The notes beneath the pieces are model-generated. The model was not told where the DNA came from. It was given only the letters and a program-made list of their open reading frames with translations, and made no database searches. From contig CALVRD010000003.1 of NCBI GenBank assembly GCA_944358435.1, positions 1 through 41,362 on the forward strand: DNA of 41,362 nucleotides. Direction: 5' to 3'. Shown piece by piece: positions 8,413 through 41,362 of the stretch (the first letter of the stretch is position 1; the number at the start of each line of letters is the position of its first letter). Position numbers and translations under genes: made by a program. Source of the stretch: an uncultured Bacilli bacterium. GTDB taxonomy: Bacteria > Bacillota_I > Bacilli_A > RF39 > UBA660.

Positions 8413-9552
8413 ATGAAAAAAATAGGAATTATAACTTTTCACAATTCTTACAATTGTGGATCGATGTTAGAGTCTTACGCCATGCAAGAAATTATAAAAA
8501 AATATGCTAATGTACCGGTTGAAATTATAGATTTTTCTAATGCAGGTCAAAAAAGGTTATATAACAGTTGGTTTAAAAATAATTTAAATAAAAATATTAT
8601 TAAAAATGTTTTACTAATTACTGCACATAAAAAAATTGTAAATAATAATAGTAAATACGAAATGTTTAAAAAGAAAAATTTTAATTTATCAAAAGAATAC
8701 ACAAGATTAGAAGATTTAGAAGATAAGGAATATATAATGGTAATTTCTGGAAGCGATCAAATTTGGAATATAACAATAGATGATAGCGATGATGCATATT
8801 TTTTACCATGGGTTAAAAATGCTAAGAAAGTTGCATATGCACCAAGTTTTGGAGCAAAAAGAATTCAAGATTACACTGCTGAAAGCGAAAAATATAAAAA
8901 TTATTTGAATTCATATGATGCGTTATCAATAAGAGAAAACAATGGTCGAAAATGGATTAAAGAATTGATAGGAAAAGATGTGCCAGTTTTAATTGATCCT
9001 ACTTTGCTATTGTCTAGTGAAGAATATGACAAGCTAGTATCCACTGATTTGACTGTAAATGGTAAATATATATTCTTTTATTGTCCAGATTTTAATCTTA
9101 ACATTTGTAAATATGTAAAGAATATATCAAAAAAATATCACTTGAAAGTTATTACATGGAGTACAAAATCATATTATATAAATTTTATCAAAAGATTTGG
9201 ATTTGAATTAGCAGAATATGAGAATCCAAGCGCATACTTATATTATATAAAAAATGCAGAACTAGTTATAACCACTTCATTTCATGGGACTATATTTTCT
9301 ACAATCTATAGAAAAAATTTTATTACAGTCAAAAATGGTGGTATGTATGGTAAAGATGACAGAGTGATAACATTATTATCACAACTTGATATGTTAGATA
9401 GACTTATTCCATATAAGTTTGATGAAGATTTTAATTATTTAGCCAATATAAATTATGACAACTATGAAAGAAATTTAAAAAGGCTAAAAGAAGAAGCAAA
9501 AGATTTTTTAATGAAAAATATAGGTGAATTAAAAGATGAAAGATGTGAATAA
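8413..9552 (+). CDS. Polysaccharide pyruvyl transferase family protein
   Basis: KIGIITFH..N.G, GSDQIWN, YAPSFG, SIRE, DPTLLL, TSFHGT.FS; SD AAGGAG before ATG 8413. Confidence 0.9.
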   Translation: MKKIGIITFHNSYNCGSMLESYAMQEIIKKYANVPVEIIDFSNAGQKRLYNSWFKNNLNKNIIKNVLLITAHKKIVNNNSKYEMFKKKNFNLSKEYTRLEDLEDKEYIMVISGSDQIWNITIDDSDDAYFLPWVKNAKKVAYAPSFGAKRIQDYTAESEKYKNYLNSYDALSIRENNGRKWIKELIGKDVPVLIDPTLLLSSEEYDKLVSTDLTVNGKYIFFYCPDFNLNICKYVKNISKKYHLKVITWSTKSYYINFIKRFGFELAEYENPSAYLYYIKNAELVITTSFHGTIFSTIYRKNFITVKNGGMYGKDDRVITLLSQLDMLDRLIPYKFDEDFNYLANINYDNYERNLKRLKEEAKDFLMKNIGELKDERCE

Positions 9553-10936: not shown

Positions 10937-10949
10937 AGGTGGTGAAAAA

Positions 10950-12005
10950 GTGAAAAGCTCAAGAATACATTTTATTGATGTTGCAAAAGCAATAGCTATA
11001 TTCTATATAGCACTAGGTCACGCTTTAGTTCATTCTCAGAATTCTACAATTATATTGCAATTTGTTTGTAGTTTCCATGTGGTTTTATTTTTTGTTTTAT
11101 CTGGATATACCTTTAGAATTAATAATGAAGAAACTTTTTTTAATTTTTTCAAAAATAAATTTATTAGAATAATGATTCCATATTTTTGCTGGGCAATACT
11201 TTTTTTAATACCTTATATGATATTTGGAAAGAGTGTTGGACAATCATTGGGAACAAATCAATCATTCGATTTATTAAACCAGATATTTAACATATTATAT
11301 GGAAATGGAAATGATGCTGCTCTAAAACAGAATAGTTCCCTATGGTTTTTACCTGCATTATTTACAATTGAAATATTTTATTATTTAGTTATTAAATATA
11401 CAAAAGGAAATATTAAAAAAGAATCATGGACAATAATAATATTATTTTGTTTAGGATTTATATCTAGTAAGTATTTAAAAATAATTTTACCAATAGGAAT
11501 AAATACTATGCTAAATGTTGGAATATTTTTTATAATTGGTTATTTATTAAAAGAGCGTGATTTGTTAAAAAAAATAAATGTCTTTGAAACAATAGTGTTG
11601 CTTTTAATAGGATTAGTTGCTTGTTATGAAAACAAAATACATTTATCATACATAGACTTTTATTATGGCAATTACATCTTTATGTTATTATCTGGTCTAT
11701 GTTTATCATTATTTACACTTAAGATTGCTGAACGTATTGGTAAAAATAAAGTATTAGAATATATAGGAAAAAATACTATGGGAATATTGATATTTCATAA
11801 AATTGTTATAATTATTTTTCAAACTAAATTAGGTGTGATTTCTAACTTACTATATAAGAGTAGTTGTAGTATAGAATTATTTATAGCTATAATATCTATA
11901 ATTATAAGTTTTTTTGTCTCACTTATTGGTACAGAAATCATCAGAAAAATTTGCCCTTTTTTAATAGGAGAAAAGCCTAAAAAAATAACAAATAAAATAA
12001 TTTAA
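10950..12005 (+). CDS. Acyltransferase family 3 (polysaccharide O-acetylase)
   Basis: R..FID.AK, GH, FH..LFF.LSGY, R.MIPY, LWFL..LF. Confidence 0.9.
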   Translation: MKSSRIHFIDVAKAIAIFYIALGHALVHSQNSTIILQFVCSFHVVLFFVLSGYTFRINNEETFFNFFKNKFIRIMIPYFCWAILFLIPYMIFGKSVGQSLGTNQSFDLLNQIFNILYGNGNDAALKQNSSLWFLPALFTIEIFYYLVIKYTKGNIKKESWTIIILFCLGFISSKYLKIILPIGINTMLNVGIFFIIGYLLKERDLLKKINVFETIVLLLIGLVACYENKIHLSYIDFYYGNYIFMLLSGLCLSLFTLKIAERIGKNKVLEYIGKNTMGILIFHKIVIIIFQTKLGVISNLLYKSSCSIELFIAIISIIISFFVSLIGTEIIRKICPFLIGEKPKKITNKII

Positions 12006-12043
12006 ATAAGTGAATTTTAATTATAAAAACTATTATATGAGGA

Positions 12044-13462
12044 GTGAAACTTATGAAAAAGAAAATTATTTGCAATATTATTAGTATTTCTTCAATAATT
12101 GCAATTATTGTACTATCTTGTTTACTATTTTCCATTAATATAATTTCATATAAATATTTATTGATTATATATAGTACTATATTTTTAATAAATATTATAG
12201 GGATTATTTTTACTAATATAAATATCAAAGGTTTAAGAACGCTTGGAATTATTATATTGATTATAATTATAATAGGAAGTTCTATTGGTAGTTATTATCT
12301 CATTACTACTAATAAATTTTTAGATAATTCTTTTAATAATAATGAAATTGTTTATACTAATACTTTTTATGTAGTTACAAATAATGATAATAATTATGAT
12401 AAGAGTAATATTAAAAATGAGATATCTTATTATAAAGATACTACTGATATCGATGATGCTTTAAACTATTTAAAGAAGAATTATAAAATTAAAGATAAAT
12501 TATATGAAGATATTGGAAATATGTTTTATGATCTAAAAGATAATAATATTAAGTTTATGTTAGTAGAAAAATCTTCTTATGATATAGTTTTTAATTTAGA
12601 TAGTAGTTTAAATAAAGATGATTTTAAAGTAATTGATCAGTTTGATATTAAAAAGAAGAAAGAGAATAAACCTTCTTCTATTAAAGATAGTTTTAATATT
12701 TATATTGGTGGTAATGATTTTACTAATAGTTTAATGGATTTTAATATGATTGTTTCTGTTAATATGAAGAAACATCAAATACTTTTAACAAGTATTCCTA
12801 GAGATTATTATGTAGAAGTAGCTGGGAAAGATGGCAGAAGAGATACTTTAAGTTATATGGGACCATATGGTATTGAAACTAGTGTTTCATCTTTAGAAAA
12901 TTTATTTGGTATTGAAATAGATTATTATGTAAAAGTTAATACTGAAAGTTTAGTTGAGCTAGTTGATAAGATTGGTGGTATAACATATTGTTCTGATATT
13001 GCATTTACAACTACCCATGCTCTTGTTTTAAATACATATAATGATTATGGTAAAAAATTATATGTAAAAAAAGGTTGCCAAGAGTTAAATGGTATTGAGA
13101 CTTTAACTGTAGCAAGGGAGAGAATGGCTTTTCCTGGAAGAGATAGAGTTAGACAAGAAAACTGTCGTAAAATTATTATTGCTATATTTGAAAAACTAAA
13201 AAGTACTAATACAATTTTAATATATAATCAAATGCTTGATTCATTAAGTAATATGTATGTTACTACTATTCCTAGAGAGATTATTAGTAATTTTGCTAAA
13301 GAGACATTAAATGGAGCTAAATGGCAAATTTTAGAACAATCAGTAAATGGTTCAGATGATATAGATTATGTTCATTTAACTAATTTAAAAGATTGGGTAA
13401 TGTATCCTGATATGAATACTGTAGTTAATGCCAAGGGCAAGATAGAAGAAGTTTTAAAATAA
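12044..13462 (+). CDS. LCP (LytR-CpsA-Psr) polysaccharide-to-wall ligase
   Basis: N-terminal TMs, LTSIPRD.YV, LVD.IGGI, ARER, GRD.VRQEN. Confidence 0.9.
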   Translation: MKLMKKKIICNIISISSIIAIIVLSCLLFSINIISYKYLLIIYSTIFLINIIGIIFTNINIKGLRTLGIIILIIIIIGSSIGSYYLITTNKFLDNSFNNNEIVYTNTFYVVTNNDNNYDKSNIKNEISYYKDTTDIDDALNYLKKNYKIKDKLYEDIGNMFYDLKDNNIKFMLVEKSSYDIVFNLDSSLNKDDFKVIDQFDIKKKKENKPSSIKDSFNIYIGGNDFTNSLMDFNMIVSVNMKKHQILLTSIPRDYYVEVAGKDGRRDTLSYMGPYGIETSVSSLENLFGIEIDYYVKVNTESLVELVDKIGGITYCSDIAFTTTHALVLNTYNDYGKKLYVKKGCQELNGIETLTVARERMAFPGRDRVRQENCRKIIIAIFEKLKSTNTILIYNQMLDSLSNMYVTTIPREIISNFAKETLNGAKWQILEQSVNGSDDIDYVHLTNLKDWVMYPDMNTVVNAKGKIEEVLK

Positions 13463-13468
13463 TTTCTT
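13352..13468 (+). repeat. Copy 1 of a 117-bp direct repeat (3' end of the LCP gene)
   Basis: Ungapped match to 14829-14945 with 9 mismatches counted by eye. Confidence 0.9.
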
Positions 13469-13521
13469 CTTTTTTTGTTGTATATCAAAGAAAAGTAATT
13501 ATAATAGTAACTGGTGGTTTT

Positions 13522-14757
13522 ATGTTGGAAATAATTGGTAATATATTTAATAATATTTATATTATGCTATTTATAGCTATATTATATTTTTTACTTTCTA
13601 AGTTAAATGTAGATAAGAGAAATATTGATAGGAAAATATCTATTTTGAATACTTTTTTGTTTATTTTAATGTTTACAGATGTAAATATGATAATAATATA
13701 TTTTTTGTATTTGGCAAGTACTTTTATGTATTTAGAAATTATAACTTTAGAGAAATTTGAAAAAGAATTAATAAAAGAACCTAAATTTTTACTATTAGAT
13801 TATTTATATAAGATGATTATAAATTATGGGGCTTTGTACATGTTTTTTAGTTATCTATTTTATAAATGTTTTAAATTACCTTTTATATTAAAATTATTAA
13901 TATCTTTTTATTTAGCGTTTAAAGGAATTATTGCTTCACTAAATAATGATTTTGAGACATATAGTTTTAATGAAATATATGAGAAAGTTAATTCAGTAAT
14001 GAAATTTAATATGTTTAATATTAATTATAAATTGGAAATGTTTTCTAATATGCTATTATATAAAGAAGATAAAAGTTATTTTATAAGAGAAAATAGCTAC
14101 AATTTACTGAGTTTAGAATTTTTATATTATAGATTAAAAAGATGTTATGATAATTATAAATATAATAGTAAATTGTCTAAATTTCGTAAAATTATATTAT
14201 TATTTAGAGATGTTTGTATACATACTTTTAGGTTTATTTATATAAATGTTAAGAAGTTATTTAAATATTTTTATTTTAAAATTAGAAATAAATTTTCTTT
14301 TAAGAAAAAATATATAAAATTAACAAGAGGGTATTCTACTATAGAAATGCAATTAATTAGAACTTTGGCAGTTAAAGATGGTTATAATAAATATCCAATT
14401 AAAAGGAAAATATTTGAATTAATTTATTCTTATATTTTCTTCAATTGCTTAAATGAATATTATAGATATATTGGGTATATGTCATATTTTGATGATAATT
14501 CTAAATTTAAATATTATTTAATTTATTTATATATATATTTTGCTCCTGTAAAGATTAATGGCAAGATGTATAATAATATTTTTGAATTATATAATAAAGA
14601 GTCATTATATGATATTTCATATGAAGAATTTTTTGTATGGACATTAGGTTTGTCTTTCAAACCTATAGATTATGATATTATTGGTTATAAAACTGTTGAA
14701 TGGGCAGGATTAGATAAAAAAGAACTTTTATTAATAGTAGATAAATTCCAAAATTAA
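13522..14757 (+). CDS. Membrane protein with a divergent GT51 (peptidoglycan transglycosylase)-like domain
   Basis: N-terminal TMs, then KEDKSYF (motif 1 ED), GYSTIEMQLIR (motif 2 GxSTxxxQ), RKIFE (motif 3 RKxxE), K.YLIYLY (motif 4-like). Confidence 0.6.
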   Translation: MLEIIGNIFNNIYIMLFIAILYFLLSKLNVDKRNIDRKISILNTFLFILMFTDVNMIIIYFLYLASTFMYLEIITLEKFEKELIKEPKFLLLDYLYKMIINYGALYMFFSYLFYKCFKLPFILKLLISFYLAFKGIIASLNNDFETYSFNEIYEKVNSVMKFNMFNINYKLEMFSNMLLYKEDKSYFIRENSYNLLSLEFLYYRLKRCYDNYKYNSKLSKFRKIILLFRDVCIHTFRFIYINVKKLFKYFYFKIRNKFSFKKKYIKLTRGYSTIEMQLIRTLAVKDGYNKYPIKRKIFELIYSYIFFNCLNEYYRYIGYMSYFDDNSKFKYYLIYLYIYFAPVKINGKMYNNIFELYNKESLYDISYEEFFVWTLGLSFKPIDYDIIGYKTVEWAGLDKKELLLIVDKFQN

Positions 14758-16156: not shown

Positions 16157-17137
16157 TTGAAAATTAAAAGCAAACTACATTTGTTTTTTTTATCTCTTCT
16201 TCTTATTATTCCCATTAATTGTTTTGCTTATTCTAATTATGTAATTCCGGGAGGAGAAACAATTGGGATTGAGGTTAATTCTAAAGGCGTTTTAGTAGTT
16301 GGATTTTATAAAGTAAATGATAATTATATTGGACGTGATGCTGGTTTTGAAGTAGGAGATATAATTATTAAGATTAATGATTCTTTAGTTACTGATATTA
16401 ATTCTATGGTCTCTATTGTTTCTAATTCGTCTTCTCCAGCTAAGTTTACTGTTTCTAGGGATAATAAGTTAGTTGATATTAATTTATCTTTAGATAGGGA
16501 TTCTAATGGTGTTTTAAAGACTGGTTTATATGTTAAGGATAAAATTAATGGTATTGGAACTTTAACATATATAGATCCTAAAAGTAAAGTTTTTGGAGCT
16601 TTAGGACATGAAATAATTGAAAATACTACTATTTCTAAATTTGAAATTAAAGGTGGTATTATCTATAATGCTAATGTAAGTAGTATTGTAAAGAGTAGAA
16701 ATGGTAAAGCTGGAGAGAAAAATGCAACATATGATAAAACTAATATTAAAGGGACAATAGATTCTAATGAAGTTCCTGGTATATTTGGAATTTATTCTGA
16801 TAGTTTAAATGGTCTTTCAACTATTGAAGTGGCAAAAGTGGATGAAATAAAAACAGGAGAAGCTATTATTAGAACTGTTATTTCGGGATCTAAAGTAGAA
16901 GACTTTACAATTAATATTTTACATATAGATACTAATAGTAAGACTAAAAATATATTATTTGAGGTAACTGATAAAGAATTAATTAATAAAACAGGAGGAA
17001 TAGTTCAAGGAATGAGTGGATCTCCAATAATTCAAAATAATAAAATTATTGGAGCAGTCAACTATGTTATAGTAAATGATACTACTAAAGGATATGGAAT
17101 ATTTATAACTACTATGTTAGAAGAAGGGGATAAGTAA
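16157..17137 (+). CDS. spoIVB: SpoIVB serine peptidase (S55, PDZ domain)
   Basis: PGG.TIG, GIGTLTY, GALGH, GGIVQGMSGSPIIQN.K.IGAV. Confidence 0.93.
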   Translation: MKIKSKLHLFFLSLLLIIPINCFAYSNYVIPGGETIGIEVNSKGVLVVGFYKVNDNYIGRDAGFEVGDIIIKINDSLVTDINSMVSIVSNSSSPAKFTVSRDNKLVDINLSLDRDSNGVLKTGLYVKDKINGIGTLTYIDPKSKVFGALGHEIIENTTISKFEIKGGIIYNANVSSIVKSRNGKAGEKNATYDKTNIKGTIDSNEVPGIFGIYSDSLNGLSTIEVAKVDEIKTGEAIIRTVISGSKVEDFTINILHIDTNSKTKNILFEVTDKELINKTGGIVQGMSGSPIIQNNKIIGAVNYVIVNDTTKGYGIFITTMLEEGDK

Positions 17138-22754: not shown

Positions 22755-24407
22755 ATGATTATTATGGATGAAGAAATTTACATAAGATATTTACAAAATT
22801 ATTATGATGAGCATGGAACAATTAATGATATTGATTATAATACAGTTGTTGAATTTGAGGGTAATGCTTTAAATATTGGCTTATTTTTAGTGAAAAGTTG
22901 TCTTTTTCATCAATCATATGATGATGCTATTATAATATTTAGTGCTGTATCTTCCAAGTCATTAGCTATATATAATTCTTTAAGTAAATTTGATTTTGAT
23001 TGGGAACAACATGAAATGGCCATTTTAGAAGAAGATTGCATTCCTTATATTGAATATTTAAAAAGATACTATGAGAAACAAGGCTCTATTAATGATATTT
23101 CAGTTGAAAAAGTTTTTAAGCTTAATGGGGTTATTTTAAGTATTGGTAGATTTCTTTCAAGAATGAAAATTAGTTATAGAACATATAAGTCTGAAAATGA
23201 AGAAAAAAACATAAGTCCACTTATTCTTAAAATATGTCAGGACTTAGAAAAGTTAGAATTTGATAATTGGGATGGAATAATTACATTAAAAGATTTGGCT
23301 TTACAAAATGGGGTTAATATTACAACTTTATTTAAGATTAAAGAAAAGTGTAATGATAATGTAGAGAAAGCTTTAAAAATTGCTCTTTTAAGAAAAAAAT
23401 ATAATGATTTTCAGGATATTTCTAAACATGATGGTGGTAGTTTAAAAGAAACACTAGAATTATTTGACTTAGATATTGATACATTTATTAAATATTTAGA
23501 TAGAGATGTTTTAAAGACCAATAGTCATACTGGATTGATAGTTTTTGATAATGATATGACATTTAGTGATTTTTGCTTAAAAAATGGTTATAATGAACAG
23601 ATAATTATAAAAGCAATTAGATTAAAAAAGAAAAAGTTGTGTGATGAGTCATTTGAATCATTAATTAATAGATGTATTGTAGGATATAGTTCTAATGGAA
23701 GAAATAATCCAGCTAGTTGGATTTTTCAAAAGTATGGAAATGAGAAATTAGTAGGACAGATGTTAGCTTTGATGACATTTGATCCAAAAGCTTTTTGGTA
23801 TAATATGACTAAATATGAATTAACGATAGAAGAAGCTATTTGTTATGAAAGCTTTAAATGTAATAAAGGTACTAGGTTTGCATATTTAGATGCAATCTAT
23901 TATGAGATGGTTGATTTTTATCAAGGTCTTATTAGTAAAAATTTAAGTGAAGAAGAAATTAAAAATTTATTATTATCTAAAAGAAATAATTTAATTTCTG
24001 AGTATCAATTGACTAAAGAAGAAGAAAAAATAATTAGTAATTCTTTTGATCAATATTCTACAGCAATTTATCAATATCATTTATTTGATGTAGCATTTGA
24101 AAATGATGAAGAAAAAAGGATTAGTAAGATAATTAATTATAATTTTTCTGATGCTGATATTGAAGAAGCTTTCTTTTACCCTTTGAATTTTGGCAAGTGT
24201 AATTTAATTGGTAGAAATAGTAATTTATACCAACGTCGAATTGTTATGAGGAAATTAATAGCTTCTTTAAATGATTTATCAGATGCGGAATACGAAAGTA
24301 TGGTTCCTCTTTTAAAATTATCGGATGAAGAGGTTAGTTATGTAACTACAACTAGAAATAAAATTAATAGAGTTCAGGAAAAGGTATATCAATATAGAAG
24401 ACAATAA
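22755..24407 (+). CDS. HA-like repeat protein B (2 repeats)
   Basis: Same repeat and C-terminal motifs as its neighbours. Confidence 0.75.
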   Translation: MIIMDEEIYIRYLQNYYDEHGTINDIDYNTVVEFEGNALNIGLFLVKSCLFHQSYDDAIIIFSAVSSKSLAIYNSLSKFDFDWEQHEMAILEEDCIPYIEYLKRYYEKQGSINDISVEKVFKLNGVILSIGRFLSRMKISYRTYKSENEEKNISPLILKICQDLEKLEFDNWDGIITLKDLALQNGVNITTLFKIKEKCNDNVEKALKIALLRKKYNDFQDISKHDGGSLKETLELFDLDIDTFIKYLDRDVLKTNSHTGLIVFDNDMTFSDFCLKNGYNEQIIIKAIRLKKKKLCDESFESLINRCIVGYSSNGRNNPASWIFQKYGNEKLVGQMLALMTFDPKAFWYNMTKYELTIEEAICYESFKCNKGTRFAYLDAIYYEMVDFYQGLISKNLSEEEIKNLLLSKRNNLISEYQLTKEEEKIISNSFDQYSTAIYQYHLFDVAFENDEEKRISKIINYNFSDADIEEAFFYPLNFGKCNLIGRNSNLYQRRIVMRKLIASLNDLSDAEYESMVPLLKLSDEEVSYVTTTRNKINRVQEKVYQYRRQ

Positions 24408-24421: not shown

Positions 24422-26614
24422 ATGGAAAATGATATTTATTTAGATTATTTTAGAAAACATTATAGTTTGTATGGTACGGTTAATAATATTGGGGATAATG
24501 ATGAAGTAGTTTTTTTAGGTAAAACTTTAAAAATTGGTTGGTTTAAAAGAATGATTCGAAATAAGCATAATTATTATAAAAGAGGTATTGATGCAAGAGG
24601 CTCTTGTACTACTTTAGCAATTAACAGATATAATGTTTTAGATGAATTAGGCTTTGAGTGGGAACCACAGAAGAAATTAACGGAAAATATATTAGGAAAT
24701 GATTTATATATTAAATATTTGCAAGATTATTATAGAGAACATGGTACTATTAATGATATTAATTTAACTTCAAGTGTTGAATATGGTGGAAAGACTTTAA
24801 AAATAGGATCTTTTATTAAAAATATTAGAAATTTGCATCGCTATTATGAACAAGGTCTTGATATTGAACAAAGTTTTAGTGAAATTTCTCTTACAAGATA
24901 TTCTGCCTTAGAAGAAATGAATTTTTCTTGGAATTTATTTTCGAAGAGTTTAAGTGATTTAGATGAAGATATTTATATTGCTTGTATAAAAGATTATTAT
25001 GAGAAGAATGGATCGCTTGCTGGACTAGATAGTGAGAGGATAATAAAGTTTAGAGGAGAAAAAGTAAATATTTCTTTATTTTTAAAAGGAATTAGACAAG
25101 TACATAGAAATTATTTAAATGGATTATGTAAATATGATGAGAAGACAATTAAACTTTATTTAGATAGAAAAGTAATTCTTGATAGAATGGGATTTAATTT
25201 TGATGAAAATAAAGATAAGGATAATTTTTCTTTTTTGGAAGAAGATTTATTTCTTGAGTATTTAAAAGAATATTATAGTAGAAATAATACAATTAATGAT
25301 ATTCCAACAACTGCTGTAGTTGTGTTTAGAGGGGAAACATTAAAAATAGGCGATTTTCTTAAAACTATGCGTTATAATCATAAATTTTATATCGATGGTA
25401 AAAGTAGGGCTGGAGCTGTTACTAGGGTTGCACTTAGAAGGTATGATGAACTTGAAAAATTAGGCTTTAACTGGATAAGTGAGAAGAAAGAAACTATTAC
25501 AAGTATTGCTAGAGATAATGGCTTTCCTGTATCTACAGTTCGCTCTTTAGTAAATAAATTTGATGGGGATATTGATAAGGCTATCAAAATTTTATTATTA
25601 AAAAAGCAAAGAGAAGAAAAAGTAAGAAAAAAGAAGAAAGATAAATATAGTTTAAATAATATTTTAGATTCTTTTGATGTAAATATGGAAACTTTTACTA
25701 GATATTTAGAAAGACCAGTAGTCAGAAAAGGTAAAACTAAAAATAAACCTATTATGGTTGATAAGAATATGAGTTTATGGGATTTCTGCGTAAGTAATGG
25801 TTATAATTATGATGTTGTGTCTCGAATAGTTAAGTTAAAGATGAAAGATTTATGTGATGAAGATTTAGAATCTTTAATTAATAGAAGTATTATTGAATAT
25901 CAAAATGTTGGACAAGGGAGAGTAGCAACATGGGTTTATAGTAAGTATGGGAATGAAATTTTAGTTAAGCATATGCTTATTTCGATGAATTTAGATTCTT
26001 CAGCGGTATTGAAAGATATGTCACAATATGTAATTAGTTTAGATGAAGCTATTGAAAGAGAAACTTTTAGGAAAAAAAATGGGCAAGAGTTTAGTTATTT
26101 ATGGGATATTTATCATGAGTTTGTTGAATTTTATAGAATGGTTGATACTAGCATTCAATATGATGAAGAAACAGCAAGTGCTTCTTTAGTTGAAAAAGCT
26201 CATAATCTGGTAGATGAATATCATTTAACTAATGAAGAATTTAATGGTATTATTGGGGCATTTAAGCATTATACAGATGCAATATATCAATATCATTTAT
26301 ATGAAGTTGGATTTGAAAAAGATGATAAAAAAAGATTAGAAAAAATAGTTAGTTATAAATTTGATAGTAAGGATATTGAGGAAGCTTTTTTCGTACCTCT
26401 TAGATTTGATCAGAAAGTTTTAATTGGTCGTGATAGTGAATTATATAAACGACGTCAATTAGTTAGAGATTTAACAATTTCTTGGAATGATTTAAGTGAT
26501 GAAGAAAAGACTTTGCAAATTAGTAATTTTGGACTTACTTCTTTAGAATTAGAATATATAAGTAGCACTAGTCAAATGATTGATACGGCAAAGAACAAAG
26601 TATTAGTAATTTAA
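24422..26614 (+). CDS. HA-like repeat protein C (4 repeats)
   Basis: Four repeats ending LGFEW, MNFSW, MGFNF, LGFNW; shared C-terminal domain. Confidence 0.75.
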   Translation: MENDIYLDYFRKHYSLYGTVNNIGDNDEVVFLGKTLKIGWFKRMIRNKHNYYKRGIDARGSCTTLAINRYNVLDELGFEWEPQKKLTENILGNDLYIKYLQDYYREHGTINDINLTSSVEYGGKTLKIGSFIKNIRNLHRYYEQGLDIEQSFSEISLTRYSALEEMNFSWNLFSKSLSDLDEDIYIACIKDYYEKNGSLAGLDSERIIKFRGEKVNISLFLKGIRQVHRNYLNGLCKYDEKTIKLYLDRKVILDRMGFNFDENKDKDNFSFLEEDLFLEYLKEYYSRNNTINDIPTTAVVVFRGETLKIGDFLKTMRYNHKFYIDGKSRAGAVTRVALRRYDELEKLGFNWISEKKETITSIARDNGFPVSTVRSLVNKFDGDIDKAIKILLLKKQREEKVRKKKKDKYSLNNILDSFDVNMETFTRYLERPVVRKGKTKNKPIMVDKNMSLWDFCVSNGYNYDVVSRIVKLKMKDLCDEDLESLINRSIIEYQNVGQGRVATWVYSKYGNEILVKHMLISMNLDSSAVLKDMSQYVISLDEAIERETFRKKNGQEFSYLWDIYHEFVEFYRMVDTSIQYDEETASASLVEKAHNLVDEYHLTNEEFNGIIGAFKHYTDAIYQYHLYEVGFEKDDKKRLEKIVSYKFDSKDIEEAFFVPLRFDQKVLIGRDSELYKRRQLVRDLTISWNDLSDEEKTLQISNFGLTSLELEYISSTSQMIDTAKNKVLVI

Positions 26615-27457: not shown

Positions 27458-28633
27458 ATGTTTTTTAATAAGAAGAAAGATCAAAATATAGATGTTTCAA
27501 GTTTAAATGAAATACTAGAAATTGGTAAGAGATTGATGCATATAATTTATGTTGTAACAATAGTAGTTTTAGTATTACTTGCGACTTATGTTTTGAGAGA
27601 ATGGAAATTATTTCATTATTTAGGTGAATTATTAGTAGTTATTTCACCAATATTTATCGGAATAATAGTAGCATGGTTATTTGATCCAGTGGTAACTTGG
27701 TTACAAGAAAAAAAAGTTCCAAGGATTGTTGGCTGCATTGGAATTTATCTATTATTAATTTCATTTATTTTTATAATTTTATATTCATTTATTCCATTAC
27801 TTGGAGATCAAATTGGTGATTTTGTTGGAACTATTCCGGATATTTTTAGTAATTTAAAGGATTTTGCTGATGGAATGTTTGATTTCTTTGGACAAAGTGG
27901 AGCGGATGTTAAATTTATTGAAGAAAAACTATATTTATGGTTAGAAAATTTTGCAACCGAATTAACTACTGGTTTACCTAATATGTTATTGAATATTATT
28001 AAATCAATGTTAAATGGGGGACTAAGCGTTGTATTAGGATTAATGATTGGTTTTTATATGTTATTTGATTTTAATAAAATTAACGATGTTTTAGTTAATA
28101 ATATGCCTATTTCATGGAGAAAAAATTATGCTGAGTTAGGTTCTAGAATTAATTCTTCATTACGTAACTATGTTCAAGGAATTTTACTTATTATGTTCCT
28201 AGTATTTATTACTCAAACTATTGGGCTTACATTAGCTGGAATTAAGGCTCCATTAATCTTTGCACTATTCTGTGCTTTAACTGATGTTATTCCTTATTTT
28301 GGACCATATATTGGGGCAGTACCTGCAATTATAGTTGGTTTTACAATTTCACCTATAACAGGAATTTTATGTATTGTTTCAATAGTAGTAGTTCAAACAC
28401 TAGAAAACAATTTCTATCAACCATTAATTATGGGCCATACTATGAAGTTACATCCAGTAACAATTATGGTAAGTCTATTGATTTTCCAACATTTTTTTGG
28501 TATTATAGGAATGGTTATAGCGACACCGGCTGTTGCTTGTATAAAGGTAATTTGCTCATTTGTTAATGAGAAACTACATCTTATTGATATGATTGTAGGT
28601 GCTAGTGAAGAAGTTGAAATTCAATCAAATTAA
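27458..28633 (+). CDS. AI-2E (PerM) family transporter
   Basis: IPY.GP.IG..P, Q.LENN...P..MG..M.LHP, FG..G...A.P. Confidence 0.92.
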   Translation: MFFNKKKDQNIDVSSLNEILEIGKRLMHIIYVVTIVVLVLLATYVLREWKLFHYLGELLVVISPIFIGIIVAWLFDPVVTWLQEKKVPRIVGCIGIYLLLISFIFIILYSFIPLLGDQIGDFVGTIPDIFSNLKDFADGMFDFFGQSGADVKFIEEKLYLWLENFATELTTGLPNMLLNIIKSMLNGGLSVVLGLMIGFYMLFDFNKINDVLVNNMPISWRKNYAELGSRINSSLRNYVQGILLIMFLVFITQTIGLTLAGIKAPLIFALFCALTDVIPYFGPYIGAVPAIIVGFTISPITGILCIVSIVVVQTLENNFYQPLIMGHTMKLHPVTIMVSLLIFQHFFGIIGMVIATPAVACIKVICSFVNEKLHLIDMIVGASEEVEIQSN

Positions 28634-34789: not shown

Positions 34790-34950
34790 AAAATCACCAC
34801 ATTAGTTATTTTATCAAAGTTATTGTTAAAAAACTAGTAATGTTTCATATTTACTAGTATATTTATCAATAAAATTCTCTTTATATGTGAAAATACATAT
34901 GTTTTTTTCTTGTATTTTTGTACTATAATATATATAGGTATGGTGATTAT

Positions 34951-35850
34951 ATGAAAATAGATGTTGCGATCAATGATTTTATAAATTATTGTCTATTTGA
35001 AAAAGGTCTTTCTGATAAAACAAAAGAGTCTTATTTTAATGATTTGACTGTTTATAGAGAGTTTTTAAATGATCATGGTATATTTGATGTTAGTGATATT
35101 AGAGATGATGATATAAAGGAATTTTTAAAGTCAAGGTATCAGAGTGAAAAGACAACTACTATTGCTCATAATTTAACTGTTATTAAAAATTTCCATGCTT
35201 ATTTGTTACGTGTTGGGGTTGTTAAGAGGGATGTATCACAATTTGTTGAAAGACCAAAATTAAGGAAGTCTCTTCCTAAAACATTAAGTGTTGAGGATAT
35301 TGATGTGTTATTAGATATTGAGTTAAAGACGGTATTTGACTATCGTAATAAAGCTATGTTAGAATTAATGTATGGAACTGGATTACGAGTTAGTGAGATA
35401 GTTAATCTTACTTTTAATGATATTGATATGACTAATTGTATTATTAGAATTATGGGTAAGGGTAGTAAAGAAAGAGAAGTTCCTTTAGGAGAATATTCTA
35501 TTTATTATTTAAAACTTTATTTAGATAAGAGAGAGGCTATGCTTAAAGAAAAATCTTGCGATAAATTGTTTTTAAATAATCATGGACAAGGAATGACTAG
35601 ACAGGGATTCTTTAAGAATTTGAAAATATTGCTAAAGGAAAAAGGATTAAATACTAATGTATCTCCACATACGTTAAGACATTCTTTTGCAACCCATTTA
35701 TTAAATCGTGGTGCTGATTTGCGTAGTATTCAAGAAATGCTAGGACATTCTGATATTGCAACTACTAAGATATATACTCATGTTAGTAATGAAAAAGTAA
35801 TTGATGATTATAATAAATATCATCCTCGTAGTCATAAAGGAGATGTATGA
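34951..35850 (+). CDS. xerD: Xer-type tyrosine recombinase (XerD/RipX)
   Basis: TGLRVSE, GKGSKER.VP, PHTLRHSFATHLL..GADLR.IQEMLGH.DI.TT.IYTHV, YHPR; precedes deoB as in Bacillus ripX-drm. Confidence 0.85.
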   Translation: MKIDVAINDFINYCLFEKGLSDKTKESYFNDLTVYREFLNDHGIFDVSDIRDDDIKEFLKSRYQSEKTTTIAHNLTVIKNFHAYLLRVGVVKRDVSQFVERPKLRKSLPKTLSVEDIDVLLDIELKTVFDYRNKAMLELMYGTGLRVSEIVNLTFNDIDMTNCIIRIMGKGSKEREVPLGEYSIYYLKLYLDKREAMLKEKSCDKLFLNNHGQGMTRQGFFKNLKILLKEKGLNTNVSPHTLRHSFATHLLNRGADLRSIQEMLGHSDIATTKIYTHVSNEKVIDDYNKYHPRSHKGDV

Positions 35851-35853: not shown

Positions 35854-37020
35854 ATGCAATTCAAACGAATTTTTTTATTAGTTTTAGATTCTTTAGGTGT
35901 TGGTGAGACAACAGATGCTATTAATTTTTCTGATAATGGTGCGAATACGTTAGGTCATATAAAAGAACAATATGATTTATTTATACCTAATTTAAAAAAG
36001 ATAGGTTTTTTAGATACATTAAATATGAGTGATAATAGTAATGTTGATGCTTATTATACAATTGCTAAACCTATTAATGCAGGTAAAGATTCTTTAAATG
36101 GTCATTATGAAATGATGGGTATTAAAAATAATATTCCTTTTAAAACATTTAATAGTGGTTTTACCTATGATATTTTAAATAGTATCGAAAATGTTACGGG
36201 AAGACGAGTTATTGGTAATAAATGCTGTAATGATGATTCTATTATTAATGAGCTTGGGGAAAGACAGATGAACTATGGATCACTTATTATCTATACTTCA
36301 GCGGATTCTGATTTACAAGTTGCAGCACATGAGGATTGTATTCCTATACCTACTTTATATCAATATTGTGAAAAAATTAGGGCTATTACTTTAAAAGACG
36401 ATTGGAGAGTAGGGAGGGTTATTGCTAGGCCATTTACTGGGGTGCCTGGTAAATTTAAGTTTATTAATAGTGCCAGACGTGATTATGCTGTAAAGCCTCC
36501 TAAAAAGAGTGTATTAGATAGTTTAATTGAAAATAGTTATAATGTTATTGGTATTGGGAAAATTAATGTTATTTTTGATGGACAGGGTATCAATAAGTGT
36601 ATTAAGGCAACAAATAATGCGGAAGTTGTTAATAAACTATTAGATATAATGGATAAGAACTTTACGGGACTATGTATTGCTAATTTATCGGATTTTGATG
36701 GATTATATGGTCATCAGAGAGATGTTGTTGGTTATGGTCGGGCAATTGAAGAATTAGATGTAGATATGCCAATGATATTAAATAAGTTAGAATTAGATGA
36801 TTTATTAATTATTACGGCAGACCATGGAAATGATCCAACATTTAAAGGAAATGACCATACGAGGGAGAATGTACCAGTTATTATTTATAGTCGTAATTTC
36901 AAAACACCAGGTAGAATGCAACCATTTGAGACGTTTGCTAATATAGGAGCAACAATTGCTGATAATTTTAATGTAGATGCTCCAGAAATAGGAATAAGTA
37001 TATTAGATGATTTAAAATAG
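35854..37020 (+). CDS. deoB: Phosphopentomutase
   Basis: LDS.G.G...DA, YTSADS..Q.AAHE, GRVIARPF, DFD..YGH.RD, TADHGNDP, HTRE.VP. Confidence 0.95.
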   Translation: MQFKRIFLLVLDSLGVGETTDAINFSDNGANTLGHIKEQYDLFIPNLKKIGFLDTLNMSDNSNVDAYYTIAKPINAGKDSLNGHYEMMGIKNNIPFKTFNSGFTYDILNSIENVTGRRVIGNKCCNDDSIINELGERQMNYGSLIIYTSADSDLQVAAHEDCIPIPTLYQYCEKIRAITLKDDWRVGRVIARPFTGVPGKFKFINSARRDYAVKPPKKSVLDSLIENSYNVIGIGKINVIFDGQGINKCIKATNNAEVVNKLLDIMDKNFTGLCIANLSDFDGLYGHQRDVVGYGRAIEELDVDMPMILNKLELDDLLIITADHGNDPTFKGNDHTRENVPVIIYSRNFKTPGRMQPFETFANIGATIADNFNVDAPEIGISILDDLK

Positions 37021-37079
37021 AAAAGTAGGGGAAGTCCCCTATTTTTGATATAGAAAAAGGGGAGCAAGCCTCCTCTTCT
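37021..37079. terminator. Two back-to-back hairpins terminating deoB and the DUF1540 gene
   Basis: AAAAGTAGGGG-aagt-CCCCTATTTT and AAGGGGAG..CTCCTCTT. Confidence 0.6.
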
Positions 37080-37318
37080 TAATTATTTTCGTTTTCAGAA
37101 TTAACTTCATATTCATTATCTGTAATATTACTTCCAGTTGATTCAAAACTTTGGCAAATTGTTTCTTCACAACAATCGCAATTATTATTATTACATGTGC
37201 AACTAATTTTAATTGAATCTAATTCACAGCATTTATTATCTTTATTATTATAAGTACATGTATTTACATCACATTTAATTTTATTATTGCTTTTGGATTT
37301 ATTATTTTTACTTTTCAT
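37079..37318 (-). CDS. DUF1540-like small Cys-rich protein
   Basis: I.C.V..C.YN....C....I.I ... T.C.SF; SD AAGGAGG. Confidence 0.8.
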   Translation of the reverse strand: MKSKNNKSKSNNKIKCDVNTCTYNNKDNKCCELDSIKISCTCNNNNCDCCEETICQSFESTGSNITDNEYEVNSENENN

Positions 37319-37649
37319 AAACTTTCCTCCTTAATAATAGTTTTGTACAACTTTTATAAAATATGCAAATGTTCTATTTTAAATTTAAGTGAAGGATAGG
37401 TCAACTTTTAAAAAATAAATTGCTTAAAATGCATTTTAGAATTTTGACTTAATTATAGTAGAGTACTTATCAGTTTGAGATATATTGTAATGTATGTATA
37501 GATATAAATAATTAAATGAATAATATTATACATAGTAATAGTTGATATAAATAATGATAAATTTTATATTAAACAACTACATATATATGATTAAATATAT
37601 GTATTATAATATTTATTGTAATTAAATAGATGTATAATATATAACATTA

Positions 37650-38474
37650 TCATAATATTACTAATGGTTTATTAATAGAAGTTAACATAATATCAATTAT
37701 GGGAAGTTGATAATTAAGCAATTCTATATCTCTATTATCACTTGAAAACACCTCATTATAAACAATTTGCTGATTATTAAAGTAATCACTTAAACTACAA
37801 TCAATATAATCTAAATAAACACTAGGTTTAACAAGATTTCTAGAATACCAATATCTTTTTTTTGATTTTAAAGTAATTAATTCTTTTGTAGCATATTTAC
37901 TTATATAATTTGTAACTTTTTCTTTTGATTTAATTTTTGATATTGTAGTAAATCCTAATTTATAATTAACAAGATTATAAATTTGAGTATTATTAATAAG
38001 CATAGGTTTACCAGTTTTAGCATTATATGCTTTTTGAAACTTCCATTTAGGAACATTACCAACAAGACCGTGAAAATGAAGATGTCCACTTATTTTATGG
38101 AATTCAGGAACAAGAATATAATACATATTTGAATTTTGATGTTTTTGATTATCAATCCATTTTTTTAACAAATTAATAGCTTTATCATGAGTATAATCTT
38201 TAATATTAAAAGTTAAAGTAATAAAATAATCAAATTTATCTTTATTATTATAGGCTAAATCTATTATATTAGATTTAACTTTTTTTAAGTACTTCCTACT
38301 ACTCTCTTCTAATTCATCAGCAGAGTATGTTCCGTTATGTTGATTAAAATTTGTAAAACCCTTAAAACTAGTAAAACTTGTGCGTTTACATTTAACAAAA
38401 TTATCAGAATATGTAATAATTTTTGTATTATATAAAGCGACGTTTAAATGTTCATTATTAACAAAATATATAAT
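37650..38474 (-). CDS. Rolling-circle replication initiator (HUH endonuclease)
   Basis: Motif I FITLTF, motif II PE.H..G.LHFHGL, motif III YISKYATK; start uncertain (TTG 38489 or ATT 38474). Confidence 0.88.
   Translation of the reverse strand: MIYFVNNEHLNVALYNTKIITYSDNFVKCKRTSFTSFKGFTNFNQHNGTYSADELEESSRKYLKKVKSNIIDLAYNNKDKFDYFITLTFNIKDYTHDKAINLLKKWIDNQKHQNSNMYYILVPEFHKISGHLHFHGLVGNVPKWKFQKAYNAKTGKPMLINNTQIYNLVNYKLGFTTISKIKSKEKVTNYISKYATKELITLKSKKRYWYSRNLVKPSVYLDYIDCSLSDYFNNQQIVYNEVFSSDNRDIELLNYQLPIIDIMLTSINKPLVIL
37680..37707 (-). other. dif-type Xer recombination site (prophage attachment site)
   Basis: Minus strand ACTTCCCATAA-TTGATA-TTATGTTAACT, 11-6-11 layout closely matching Bacillus dif ACTTCCTAGAA-TATATA-TTATGTAAACT. 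Confidence 0.85.
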
Positions 38475-38498
38475 AAAAAACACCTCCAAAAATTCGGT

Positions 38499-38572: not shown

Positions 38573-38616
38573 AAATTCGCCTTTCTTGTCGCTCTATAGT
38601 GCGACAAGGCGAATTT
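38573..38616 (-). terminator. GC-rich hairpin after the pI gene (terminator or ssDNA signal)
   Basis: AAATTCGCC-TTGTCGC-loop-GCGACAA-gaaa-GGCGAATTT. Confidence 0.55.
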
Positions 38617-39208
38617 ATAAAGTATTAATTATTTCATAAGTATCATAATGAGAACTTAACTCTTTAGTACGTTTATATATCTTAATTGCTTGCTCATCTA
38701 TAGACCAATCACAAGTAGCAGTATCAAGATAAGGAACACCGAAAGAAGTAAGCATAAATGGTGTAAGTGGTATCTTTTTAGTTGTATAAGATACATTAGC
38801 TACTCCTCTCAACCAATTAGGTACTTGTAAATATTCTTGAGTTATAAGATAAACATAACGTTTATGTTTACGAGATTGTTGCAACCAAGAATAAAAAGGT
38901 TTATCAATTTTACTGTCTTTAGTAAATTTTTTTGAAAGCTCATCAACTATAAAAATAGCACCAATTTCATGATTATCATAAATTTCTTCTAATTTAGAAA
39001 AATACCTCACTTTATGTTTGTCACTCCAATAACTCTTGATATTTGTATATATAATTCTATTTTTAAAATTTTGCTCAACATTGTAGATAGCATAGTAAGA
39101 TTTACCAGAGCCTTGATAACCATTTATCAGAGCAATAAGAAAATCATCTTTACTATTTTTTATACCTCTCTTAAAAAATGAAATATAATCAATTGAAATC
39201 TTAAGCAT
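38615..39208 (-). CDS. Zot/pI-like morphogenesis ATPase lacking a TM helix
   Basis: Walker A GYQGSGKS, IYTNI, Walker B IVDE, Q.RK.......TQ, YDT; SD AGAAAGGAG. Confidence 0.9.
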   Translation of the reverse strand: MLKISIDYISFFKRGIKNSKDDFLIALINGYQGSGKSYYAIYNVEQNFKNRIIYTNIKSYWSDKHKVRYFSKLEEIYDNHEIGAIFIVDELSKKFTKDSKIDKPFYSWLQQSRKHKRYVYLITQEYLQVPNWLRGVANVSYTTKKIPLTPFMLTSFGVPYLDTATCDWSIDEQAIKIYKRTKELSSHYDTYEIINTL

Positions 39209-39398: not shown

Positions 39399-39707
39399 CT
39401 ACCAGATTTTGACTTTCTTAATAAGATAGATAACCTTTGTGATTAAATGCACCGAATAAATAACAGTATAATAACCTATCAAGATAGCAAAATATAATAG
39501 AATTAACGACCTAGTATTAGGAGGCAGCAAATGACTAAACCAACCTAAAGTAGGACCTAATAATTGCTCACATGCTGAATTAAATACATTTAATATATTA
39601 GATAAATCAGGAAATAAACTAGATACCAGTAAATTAATAGGAGTCATTAAAGTATCTATAACACTCTTTATAACTTTAAATAAAACATTAAATATAGCCT
39701 TTGCCAT
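39399..39707 (-). CDS. pVI-like minor virion membrane protein
   Basis: About 100 aa, amphipathic then TM segment, basic tail, positioned between pIII-like and pI genes. Confidence 0.65.
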   Translation of the reverse strand: MAKAIFNVLFKVIKSVIDTLMTPINLLVSSLFPDLSNILNVFNSACEQLLGPTLGWFSHLLPPNTRSLILLYFAILIGYYTVIYSVHLITKVIYLIKKVKIW

Positions 39708-40834
39708 TAATACAATCCCTCACTTTCTCCCCTATTTACTCTACTATGGCCAGCGTGTTGAGGAGTATATAATAATTGCATTGTATCATCTAAGCTAGTT
39801 ATTGACTCATAAATAGAAATACACATCATGCCTATGTTATAAGCCATAAAGATACAAAATAACATATCTACAAGGCTATAAAGAGTATTTCCTAGATACT
39901 TCTTAATATCAATACAAGAAAATACTAAATCATAACCATATAAATTGCCTAAATTAACAGACTGACATGATGAACTAAAACCATTAACATAAGATTGCAT
40001 AAGAGTTAAAGGCATAGTTATTAAATCAGACACTGGACTATTAGAATCATCAACCTTTATACTATCAAGAAAACCACTTACATCTGGACTACTATCATCA
40101 GTCAATGTAGAATCAATATTATCTAATTTATCATTAGTAATTTGCTGATTATTATTAATAGAATCTAATAAAGCAGAATTTAAATCGGTAATTAATTCAA
40201 CATCAATAGTTAAATTTATAATTTGTGAAACTATATGATCATAGCAAACAGAAATCATAGATCCAGGACGACTATCACAAGAAGCAATATAAGAATTAGC
40301 AGATATACCAGATACACCAATAGCAAATTCAGAAACATCAATTTCAGTATCAAAAGTAACAACACCATTTAAATTAAAAAGACCACCATTAATAGTTTGA
40401 TTACTAACAGAAAAATTTACACTTTGATTAGAAATAGTAGAATTAAAACCAGCTAAATAACCTTTATATTGCGAAATTGGATTACCAATACCAGGAAAAA
40501 AAGTTAAACCATCTACACTATATTGAAAACTAATATTAAATTTCAATGCTTTAGCTTTACCTTTAATAGGAGAACTAACTGTAAATTCAAGAGCTTTATT
40601 ATGAAACTGTTGATAATTATTTACAGAATAAAGACCAAGAGGATATAAAGGTAAATTACCAGGACCAAAAGGAGAATTTAAAACAGATGATGAGCCACTT
40701 TCAAGAGTATAATCATTATAAGCAAAACCATTATGTATATAATTAACTGGCTGAGCATTGGCATTTTTAGGTAAAAAAATTAAAAATAAAAGTGGTATAA
40801 ATAAATAAAATTTAAATTTTAAAATTTTAACCAC
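39707..40834 (-). CDS. pIII-like adsorption protein
   Basis: Signal peptide ending ANA, beta-rich body, D/N-rich linker, Cys pair and C-terminal TM; inovirus gene order. Confidence 0.7.
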   Translation of the reverse strand: MVKILKFKFYLFIPLLFLIFLPKNANAQPVNYIHNGFAYNDYTLESGSSSVLNSPFGPGNLPLYPLGLYSVNNYQQFHNKALEFTVSSPIKGKAKALKFNISFQYSVDGLTFFPGIGNPISQYKGYLAGFNSTISNQSVNFSVSNQTINGGLFNLNGVVTFDTEIDVSEFAIGVSGISANSYIASCDSRPGSMISVCYDHIVSQIINLTIDVELITDLNSALLDSINNNQQITNDKLDNIDSTLTDDSSPDVSGFLDSIKVDDSNSPVSDLITMPLTLMQSYVNGFSSSCQSVNLGNLYGYDLVFSCIDIKKYLGNTLYSLVDMLFCIFMAYNIGMMCISIYESITSLDDTMQLLYTPQHAGHSRVNRGESEGLY

Positions 40835-41145
40835 CTCCCAAAAACTCTAGAAATTATTCTATAAGGAAAATAAAAACAAAAAATTAAAATAATAATAAAA
40901 ATAATTAAAATTTTATCGAAATCATACCTATAGTAAACTGAATCAGTATAAGTATTAATATTATCGCACTGTGTATTATAAGAATAACTAGAATTACTTC
41001 TCTTTACATAATAATTATTTTTAAAATAAATATCATAAACTACATTATTTGAATTATTAGTAGTTTCAAATACACGAATATAGTCATTATTTACGACATA
41101 ACAAGGCTTATTAAGATACTGACTAGGCAAATATATCTTACTCAT
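40819..41145 (-). CDS. Phage membrane protein (108 aa, C-terminal TM)
   Basis: SD GGGGTGA before ATG 41145; ILIIFIIILIFCFYF TM with basic tail. Confidence 0.7.
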   Translation of the reverse strand: MSKIYLPSQYLNKPCYVVNNDYIRVFETTNNSNNVVYDIYFKNNYYVKRSNSSYSYNTQCDNINTYTDSVYYRYDFDKILIIFIIILIFCFYFPYRIISRVFGRWLKF

Positions 41146-41242
41146 AGATATCACCCCACAAATCAGTATCTAAAAGCGAAATAAGATATAAATATTTCTT
41201 TTTTAAATCGTAATATTTTAACTTCCAAAATAAATTAAACAT
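41138..41242 (-). CDS. Small phage ORF (34 aa)
   Basis: SD GGGGGT; MFNLFWKLKYYDLKKKYLYLISLLDTDLWGDIYE*; stop overlaps the next start. Confidence 0.5.
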   Translation of the reverse strand: MFNLFWKLKYYDLKKKYLYLISLLDTDLWGDIYE

Positions 41243-41244
41243 TA

Positions 41245-41358
41245 TTAATTACCCCCAAACAATAAATGATGAATTAAATTCATAATTAAAACAAAAGGAA
41301 TTAAAAAAGGTAAAAAATTAATAAATTGAACAAGAAATTGTTCAACAACTTCAAACAT
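41245..41358 (-). CDS. Small hydrophobic phage ORF (37 aa, pVII/pIX-like)
   Basis: MFEVVEQFLVQFINFLPFLIPFVLIMNLIHHLLFGGN*; SD lies outside the window. Confidence 0.55.
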   Translation of the reverse strand: MFEVVEQFLVQFINFLPFLIPFVLIMNLIHHLLFGGN

Positions 41359-41362
41359 AAAT

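Follow-up and report, generated by a model that had tools for sequence, protein, structure and literature searches.

The DNA analyzed here is a stretch of 41,362 bp (hereafter, the window) that constitutes the whole of contig C3 in the genome assembly of an uncultured Bacilli bacterium (1.24 Mb in 79 contigs, 96% complete, about 27% GC). One end of the window carries part of an inovirus prophage, which continues onto a second contig, C15, and measures about 4.67 kb from site to site with the two contigs joined. We consider it highly probable that this prophage, which has no integrase, is integrated at the chromosomal dif site of its host by means of the host XerC-like and XerD recombinases, with an attachment (att) site that overlaps the end of the phage replication gene, rep. 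A filamentous phage at the dif of a monoderm bacterium is also what an earlier, sequence-only reading of this DNA had proposed, and that proposal has held up in all the sequence-level tests that it named; its added suggestion, that integration gives the Rep protein a switch, has not.

The dif site and the two prophage junctions

The rep-proximal junction of the prophage is the chromosomal dif itself. The 28-mer ACTTCCCATAATTGATATTATGTTAACT occupies positions 37680–37707 and reads on the minus strand as ACTTCCCATAA TTGATA TTATGTTAACT, that is, an XerC-side arm (37697–37707), a central region (37691–37696), and an XerD-side arm (37680–37690). It is identical at 23 of 28 positions to the experimentally confirmed dif of Bacillus subtilis, and its XerD-side (right) arm agrees with the XerD arm of Escherichia coli at 10 of 11 (both reference sequences as given in PMC3025954). 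The whole 1.24-Mb genome holds a single copy at ≤5 mismatches; the runners-up have 6, and one of them is the partner att site on C15. The cumulative GC skew of the window climbs to a peak at about 37000 and then drops, and C15 has the opposite polarity, the two converging on dif. Of 20 other genomes in the genus, 17 have exactly one copy of the site (≤2 mismatches), in the same syntenic position, and a reversed control pattern gave 0 matches across the 41 genomes that were searched. As a unique sequence located at the terminus and single-copy in congeners, the 28-mer is a genuine dif and more than a chance resemblance, so the earlier recognition of a 28-bp dif at the host/phage boundary was correct. 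The site is moreover read in frame, as that reading also had it (...QLPIIDIMLT...), at the 3′ end of the HUH rep gene, within an open reading frame (ORF) at 37650–38489 on the minus strand whose C-terminal end is ...NYQLPIIDIMLTSINKPLVIL (also given as ...QLPIIDIMLTSINKPLVIL); the span first singled out, 37650–37707, consists of dif plus the downstream codons of this ORF.

The partner att site, which had been predicted to lie at the far end of the prophage, is found on C15 at 23979–24006 (ACTTCCCATAA TTGATA TTGATACACCT), in direct repeat relative to dif after contig joining. The two sites agree at 17 of 17 positions over the XerC arm and central region, with 19 contiguous nucleotides of 28 in common, and at 5 of 11 in the XerD arm. 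With the flank included, the stretch 37689–37712 (minus strand) is identical to C15 23974–23997 (blastn, 24/24), made up of the XerC arm and central region with 5 nt of flank on one side and 2 nt of the XerD arm on the other; since these 24 nt are common to both junctions, the crossover must fall within 37689–37712. No further or inverted dif-like site occurs in the prophage, on either strand, at ≤8 mismatches. The junction next to rep is a perfect dif and the one at the far end is the same as attP, the phage att site, since phage and host have the same arm. The junction sequences being identical to attB (the bacterial site) and attP, the reaction is formally reversible, and since an intact dif stays on the rep side, dimer resolution is kept.

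The integration pathway that we envisage from these sequences is as follows. As deduced here, attP has the XerC-side arm and 6-bp central region of dif in perfect copy and a degenerate XerD-side arm after them, and it overlaps the last codons of rep. The double-stranded replicative form would recombine with chromosomal dif through the host XerC-like and XerD proteins, strands being exchanged conservatively at the edges of the central region. In the prophage as it stands, dif is intact next to rep and the far end has an attP-like pseudo-dif, with one fully functional dif left, and the degenerate arm may limit FtsK/Xer-driven loss of the prophage.

Relatives provide the empty site. Phage-free congeners have the order mnmA-HTH261-dif-DUF1540-deoB on single contigs, so dif stays at the same locus when the phage is absent. 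Among the relatives' 20 loci (±1.5 kb around dif), the DUF1540 gene is on one side in 15 and the HTH261 gene of C15 is matched in 14, on the syntenic side in 13 (the exception is L005). Both flanks stand on one contig in 10 of the 20, and 9 of those 10 are without a Rep match. In nucleotide alignments of three loci (L014, L008, and L013), the match to the C15 flank stops at dif and the match to the window flank begins there, and on this comparison C15 and the window are the two sides of one locus. Just 2 of the 20 congeners have a Rep match (in G011 a pseudogene adjoining dif, in G018 a gene with 33% identity), which points to a recent insertion.

The reconstructed element also bears out the remark that no integrase was in view: Pfam, PHROGs, and NCBIfam turned up no recombinase or transposase among its 11 ORFs. 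In the host, the only PF00589 tyrosine recombinases in the 96%-complete genome are XerD, encoded 1.8 kb from dif (34918–35850, plus strand; TIGR02225, 332.8 bits, cut-off 329.6), and an XerC-like protein whose best model is TIGR02224 (320.7 bits) and which scores above the cut-off of the PRK00283 subfamily. The host genome also has a homologue of FtsK/SpoIIIE. No XafT-like Xer activation factor was detected in the prophage, where ORF63, ORF72, and ORF37 are without a Pfam match beyond noise at E ≤ 1; a non-homologous factor is conceivable. A protein atlas held no usable match for ORF72 and, for ORF63, only sub-threshold leads to phage single-stranded DNA (ssDNA)-binding families (0.77–0.78). 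An activator may in any case be unnecessary here, since the B. subtilis recombinases CodV/RipX are described as not directly activated by SftA or SpoIIIE (passage on B. subtilis in PMC5357621).

Several side observations concern dif. Position 7 (window 37686) is C in this genome (G000) and in G001 and T in 15 other congeners, and C stands at both prophage junctions. At a distance of 1.6 kb from a large serine recombinase gene on contig C12 of G000 (27485–27937) there is a weak dif-like 28-mer (25893–25920, minus strand; 6 mismatches, the XerD-type arm being good), which could be a chance match or the edge of another element. The linkage of xerD, deoB, the DUF1540 gene, and dif (about 1.8 kb) is seen also in relatives at loci L040 (G011) and L036 (G100). 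Close linkage of gene and site is known for the single-recombinase XerS/difSL system (PMC1914069); unlike there, the linkage here belongs to a two-recombinase system.

Related prophages and alternative explanations

The arrangement is not peculiar to this genome. A collection of 5.8 billion proteins yielded 140 Rep homologues at E ≤ 1e-3, none of them named, and for many the longest contig is 4.1–5.8 kb, compatible with complete small genomes. Their C termini fall into classes by the att site that they encode. The forward class (class A, ...LPIID...) comprises 49 Rep proteins in two forms. In the prophage form (n = 19), LPIID is followed by IM(LT), the translated host XerD arm, within a tail of 4–42 residues, and 15 of the 19 are encoded on contigs >7 kb; in the phage form (n = 30), a phage tail of 1–8 residues follows LPIID, and 29 of the 30 are on contigs ≤6.4 kb. 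The Fisher test of this association (15/4 vs 1/31, p = 1.7e-8) was made on 32 phage-tail Reps, including P0084 and P0087, which are false positives with the motif 43–45 residues from the end and are left out of the 30. Near-identical Rep pairs diverge only past the att site (P0048/P0056, 97.4%; P0044/P0040, 96.6%), as expected if one phage had been sampled once integrated and once as a free genome. In a second class (...TSHN...) the same site is translated in a different frame, and in a third (...EVNIIS...) it has the reverse orientation. In a tree of Rep made without the att-encoded residues (FastTree, local supports only), there are at least 5 changes among the three labels, and the reverse class is nested in a forward clade.

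Genomic context agrees. Scanning a single genome for each species yielded 44 loci, and the closest 19 were analyzed. A dif-like site (≥19/22 arm matches) lies at or within about 200 nt of the rep stop in 12 of them (4 forward, 8 reverse) and none was seen in the other 7. Nine of the 12 dif loci have an upstream partner in which the first arm and central region are exactly common and the distal arm is degenerate; the identity extends over 17–18 nt in 8 of these and 12 nt in L054, and the partner is 4.9–5.3 kb away in 7 and 2.6–3.0 kb in 2. Those without a partner are L043 (truncated rep), L055 (cut by the contig start), and L080 (the relic in G011). The conserved arm is always the rep-adjacent one: forward phages have the XerC arm conserved, reverse phages the XerD arm. 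The hosts of the related phages are labelled Bacilli, Tenericutes, Clostridia, and Candidatus Ventrenecus.

Among the loci lacking a dif-like site, two cousins (L037, identical to L052, and L038, identical to L057) have a tyrosine recombinase gene downstream of rep; for L047, L048, L058, and L059 the observation is limited to the lack of a dif-like site. The recombinase-bearing cousins, at L037 (G050:C24) 6134–7861 and L038 (G148:C3) 3811–5558, have Rep proteins of 41–45% identity, and their own recombinase seems to fit an exchange of modules, self-encoded versus borrowed integration, at the same genomic position. Two further loci deserve mention for their size: the dif-flanked related units at L049 and L053 are only 3.0 and 2.6 kb long and may be satellites or deletion derivatives. 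At L039 (G156:C13), two identical copies of a distant rep stand 2.8 kb apart (6490–6984 and 9280–9774), which suggests a tandem array of a smaller related element.

Several points weigh against integration by the host Xer proteins, or at least against its certainty. The XerC-like protein falls below the NCBIfam equivalog cut-off (320.7 vs 335.15 bits), and there are eight serine-recombinase matches (PF00239) in the genome, none of them on C3 or C15. The overlap that joins these two contigs is only about 90% identical across 142 low-complexity bases. In IMG/VR, neither this Rep (as a single query) nor the exact attP 28-mer was found. No circular attP junction and no virion DNA of this phage was seen, and in the four sequencing runs that contain the window stretch, all from chicken gut and from one study and perhaps including the sample of origin, no Logan record spans the junction with ≥31 nt on each side. 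Dependence on Xer is something that we infer from sequence.

The read-level material must be considered with its format in mind: the Logan contigs of the four runs are short, fragmented unitigs, so that stretches without cover are uninformative, and the joints listed had sides of 21–29 nt and were disregarded. The circular joint of the phage was not among the Logan matches listed. A search of IMG/VR with the Rep alignment returned one contig, L093, a prophage adjoining an HTH261 homologue and not a free genome, and in JGI metagenomes 11 loci were found with no demonstrable circle, the sole terminal repeat being on a 1.6-kb fragment.

Could the junctions be an artefact of assembly, in which a free episome and an empty dif were joined by an assembler crossing over in the 24-nt repeat, leaving chimeric contig ends and no integration at all? 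The repeat is short, both junction-bearing contigs end inside the phage, and the lack of a Logan record with long sides on both would fit. However, the 24-nt repeat is shorter than the k-mers that link the contigs (matches at k=55), and two Logan records join host-type sequence to rep: record 3 of X1 (37683–38270, 0 differences), in which host-type XerD-arm bases are contiguous with rep, and record 10 of X2 (37120–37723), which runs from the host flank through 11 nt of rep-specific sequence. The depth of the phage unitigs in X1 (4–8) is not above that of the host flank (11.1), for what depth, a poor measure, is worth. Moreover, the same architecture is present in 9 other genomic loci and in 15 Rep proteins from long contigs, and decayed rep pseudogenes abut dif in G011 and G100. 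Taken together, an artefact is extremely improbable.

A second alternative accepts the integration and assigns the catalysis elsewhere, to the phage HUH Rep or to a serine recombinase acting in trans, with the likeness to dif reduced to target mimicry. HUH proteins can integrate ssDNA elements, and the eight serine-recombinase matches elsewhere in the genome keep a trans-acting enzyme conceivable. Against this, what the two junctions have in common, at 9 loci and in both orientations, is one Xer arm and the 6-bp central region exactly, the signature left when a tyrosine recombinase exchanges strands at the edges of the central region of dif. Neither C3 nor C15 has a serine recombinase, and it is the cousins without a dif-like site (L052 and L057) that have a tyrosine integrase of their own downstream of rep. 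Catalysis by anything other than XerC and XerD is accordingly very unlikely.

Integration through Xer would leave the question of whether the prophage can still move. It might be a fixed relic, given that no episomal junction was seen for this phage and that relics occur in congeners (G011). We regard this as unlikely: all 11 ORFs are open, the HUH and Tyr motifs that are invariant in a 36-sequence Rep alignment are present in this Rep, and the rarity of Rep in congeners argues for a recent insertion. In addition, the host-side unitigs of X1 and X3 stop exactly at 37712, the last base common to the empty-site sequence. This is the pattern expected if an empty site co-existed, but the other branch did not figure among the matches listed. 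An observation on relics in their own right comes from G100 (L036, C1:98000–115881), where about 11 kb (~2900–13900) between HTH261 and the DUF1540 gene is filled by decayed inovirus copies in both orientations, including rep pseudogenes with in-frame stops and two opposed Zot-like fragments, with dif mid-way (8137–8164). The region looks as though insertions had accumulated and decayed one after another at the terminus.

The Rep tail, prophage genes, and chromosomal surroundings

Reconstruction of the episomal C terminus of Rep, as the sequence-only reading had recommended, gives a phage-form tail of DTPKKEY* from C15. Integration swaps these 7 residues for 12 host-encoded ones (MLTSINKPLVIL), whose codons and stop make up 37650–37688 on the minus strand. 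A host-encoded tail thus exists, as had been claimed, with a different length: because the host XerD arm is itself translated, the unambiguous host tail is 12 residues (MLTSINKPLVIL), and not the 9 (SINKPLVIL) first counted.

Whether the tail does anything is another matter. It was suggested to be a switch, selected to lower or alter the activity or stability of Rep in the prophage, and the forward class gives this idea some substance, since there the tail truly changes on integration (here from DTPKKEY to MLTSINKPLVIL), the phage-form tails of 1–8 residues being often basic and the prophage-form tails of 4–42 residues often hydrophobic. However, the site is read in at least 3 configurations of frame and orientation, with at least 5 changes of configuration on the Rep tree. 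In the 8 reverse-orientation prophages, the rep stop is inside or directly before the phage-borne arm in 6; in the remaining two it lies 13 nt upstream of the arm (L056) or rep is a pseudogene (L046). With stops so placed, no intact Rep of that class is altered by integration. Both types of tail vary in length and sequence, and the host-derived ones are unconserved read-through of AT-rich intergenic DNA. Frame and orientation varying among close relatives, reverse-class Rep being unaltered, and host tails being unconserved, the changed tail would be a side effect of attP being squeezed up against rep in a genome of 4.7 kb. The swap is most likely neutral, and a selected switch is improbable.

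The element has the inovirus hallmarks of a Zot-like ATPase and an HUH Rep. All of its genes in the window are on the minus strand. rep (37650–38489) encodes an HUH rolling-circle initiator (PF23343, 45 bits, cut-off 27.8; phrog_3419) with the motifs HLHFHG and YISKYATK. It is followed in the window by the gene for a Zot-like P-loop morphogenesis ATPase of 197 aa (38615–39208; pI-like; PF05707, 40.4 bits, cut-off 20.3; phrog_197). Next are ORF102 (39399–39707), a small hydrophobic protein in the pVI position with no family match and a homologue in L093, and ORF375 (39707–40834), in the position of a pIII-like adsorption protein, which likewise has no family match and shows by eye a signal-peptide-like segment at the N terminus and a hydrophobic anchor at the C terminus. 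ORF111 (40819–41154) is kept in related prophages, at 38–61% identity in L037 and L093. The contig ends at 41221–41362, in the overlap (about 90% over 142 nt) with the reverse complement of the C15 end (25132–24991).

From the overlap onward, C15 carries a 37-aa hydrophobic ORF, a coat-like ORF of 55–62 aa (24772–24960), ORF72, ORF63, an ORF for a 48-aa ribbon-helix-helix regulator, and then the partner att site. The coat-like ORF has one transmembrane helix and a basic C terminus by eye and matches no family model, and relatives have an ORF at the same position; the order from coat gene to ORF111 across the contig join is uninterrupted on the single contigs of L037 and L093. The regulator ORF is transcribed divergently and has weak matches to RHH_4 and Arc. 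Genetic code 4 (TGA read as Trp), prompted by a GC content of 25%, was considered and dropped, host and phage ORFs being intact under table 11.

The host genes to the left of dif are holA, mgsA, xerD, a deoB-like phosphopentomutase gene (35854–37020, plus strand), and a DUF1540 gene (37079–37318, minus strand), the last two in synteny with phage-free relatives. By its gene content the host is a monoderm member of the Bacilli: penicillin-binding proteins are present, and neither Omp85 nor secretin was found in the 96%-complete genome. The filamentous phages B5 of Propionibacterium and CAK1 of Clostridium likewise have monoderm hosts and are not known to carry a secretin gene. Farther from the prophage, positions 3012–13462 and 16157–17137 of the window carry a wall-polysaccharide cluster of low GC (17–25%), with transferases of the GT4 and GT2 types, an LCP (LytR-CpsA-Psr) ligase, a flippase, and pyruvyl and acyl transferases, and then a SpoIVB-like peptidase. 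Positions 1–55 are repeated at the ends of contigs C39, C41, and C55, and this repeat breaks the assembly. An Rfam scan of the window gave no match.

Comparison with known Xer-exploiting elements

The individual ingredients are not new. Phages among the mobile elements that integrate by making use of Xer (IMEXs), an attP within a phage gene (XacF1), and inoviruses of Gram-positive hosts are each already known. Reading the present prophage as an IMEX has good support from the sequence data. What appears to be new is their combination in a widespread, undescribed phage family that borrows host XerC and XerD. The IMEXs named in the relevant passages of PMC5357621 are all proteobacterial (Vibrio, Neisseria, and Enterobacter). 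Inoviruses are pervasive across phyla (PMC6813254, Roux et al. 2019), and the main text of that survey, in the parts consulted, makes no mention of XerC or a dif site; its supplements may list such att sites. In the literature searched, no inovirus that exploits Xer came to light for Gram-positive or Bacilli hosts, with the same proviso that paper supplements may list such sites.

A much broader reading can be put forward, as a tentative one that we hold to be rather doubtful as a whole. This would be the first recognized Xer-exploiting filamentous phage family of monoderms, abundant in animal and human gut Bacilli; its attP would need one recognizable Xer arm, rep-adjacent and XerC or XerD by lineage, plus the central region; Firmicute XerCD could be nucleated from either side, independently of FtsK activation and reversibly without a phage activation factor; and the Rep tail of the forward class would tune replication between prophage and episome. 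An attP that retains either arm is a surprise at the level of the specialist and opens the Firmicute Xer system to study. Since Xer control differs in Firmicutes and attP variants exist with either arm degenerate, the recruitment and restraint of Xer without FtsK activation become directly testable. From a more practical standpoint, these phages of 4.4–5.3 kb seem to be frequent in metagenomes from the gut, to judge by the 140 Rep homologues, many of them on contigs as long as the genome. Their place is the terminus of gut Bacilli with small genomes, where prophage callers keyed to integrases or tRNA att sites would overlook them.

Among known systems, the ssDNA phages outside Vibrio that have been tied to dif and XerCD include the Microviridae proviruses of Bacteroidetes and the gokushoviruses of enterobacteria (PMC3091885, PMC7062461), which differ from the present phage in being icosahedral and in having diderm hosts. 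CTXphi and VGJphi are, like it, integrase-less filamentous phages that exploit XerCD at dif, but the attP of CTXphi is a folded ssDNA structure of about 150 nt (PMC5357621). In elements of the CTXphi type two inverted dif-like sites make up the hairpin, and no second or inverted dif-like site at ≤8 mismatches is present here. A closer parallel in site design is difGGI of the gonococcal genetic island (GGI), in which the XerC arm and central region are homologous to dif and the XerD arm is divergent, a divergence proposed to block FtsK-driven excision (PMC5357621); GGI, however, is a 57-kb type IV secretion system island of Neisseria and not a phage. XacF1 of Xanthomonas citri is an inovirus integrated at dif via XerC/D, with its attP in a coding region altered by integration (PMC5666396). 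There the attP is in ORF12, a putative regulator split by integration, and the host is Gram-negative, whereas here the last codons of rep are involved and only the tail is swapped.

A close match is the satellite phage TLCphi of Vibrio cholerae, which integrates reversibly at dif by host XerCD, without an integrase, through an attP whose XerC side and central region are highly homologous to dif and whose XerD side is highly divergent (PMC5357621). The attP of our phage has the same architecture (17/17 over arm and center, 5/11 in the XerD arm). TLCphi has a proteobacterial host and needs its own Xer activation factor, XafT (PMC6744903, PMC9226527), of which no homologue was detected here. The attP described here differs from that of TLCphi in overlapping rep and in that the arm kept by sister lineages is the XerD one.

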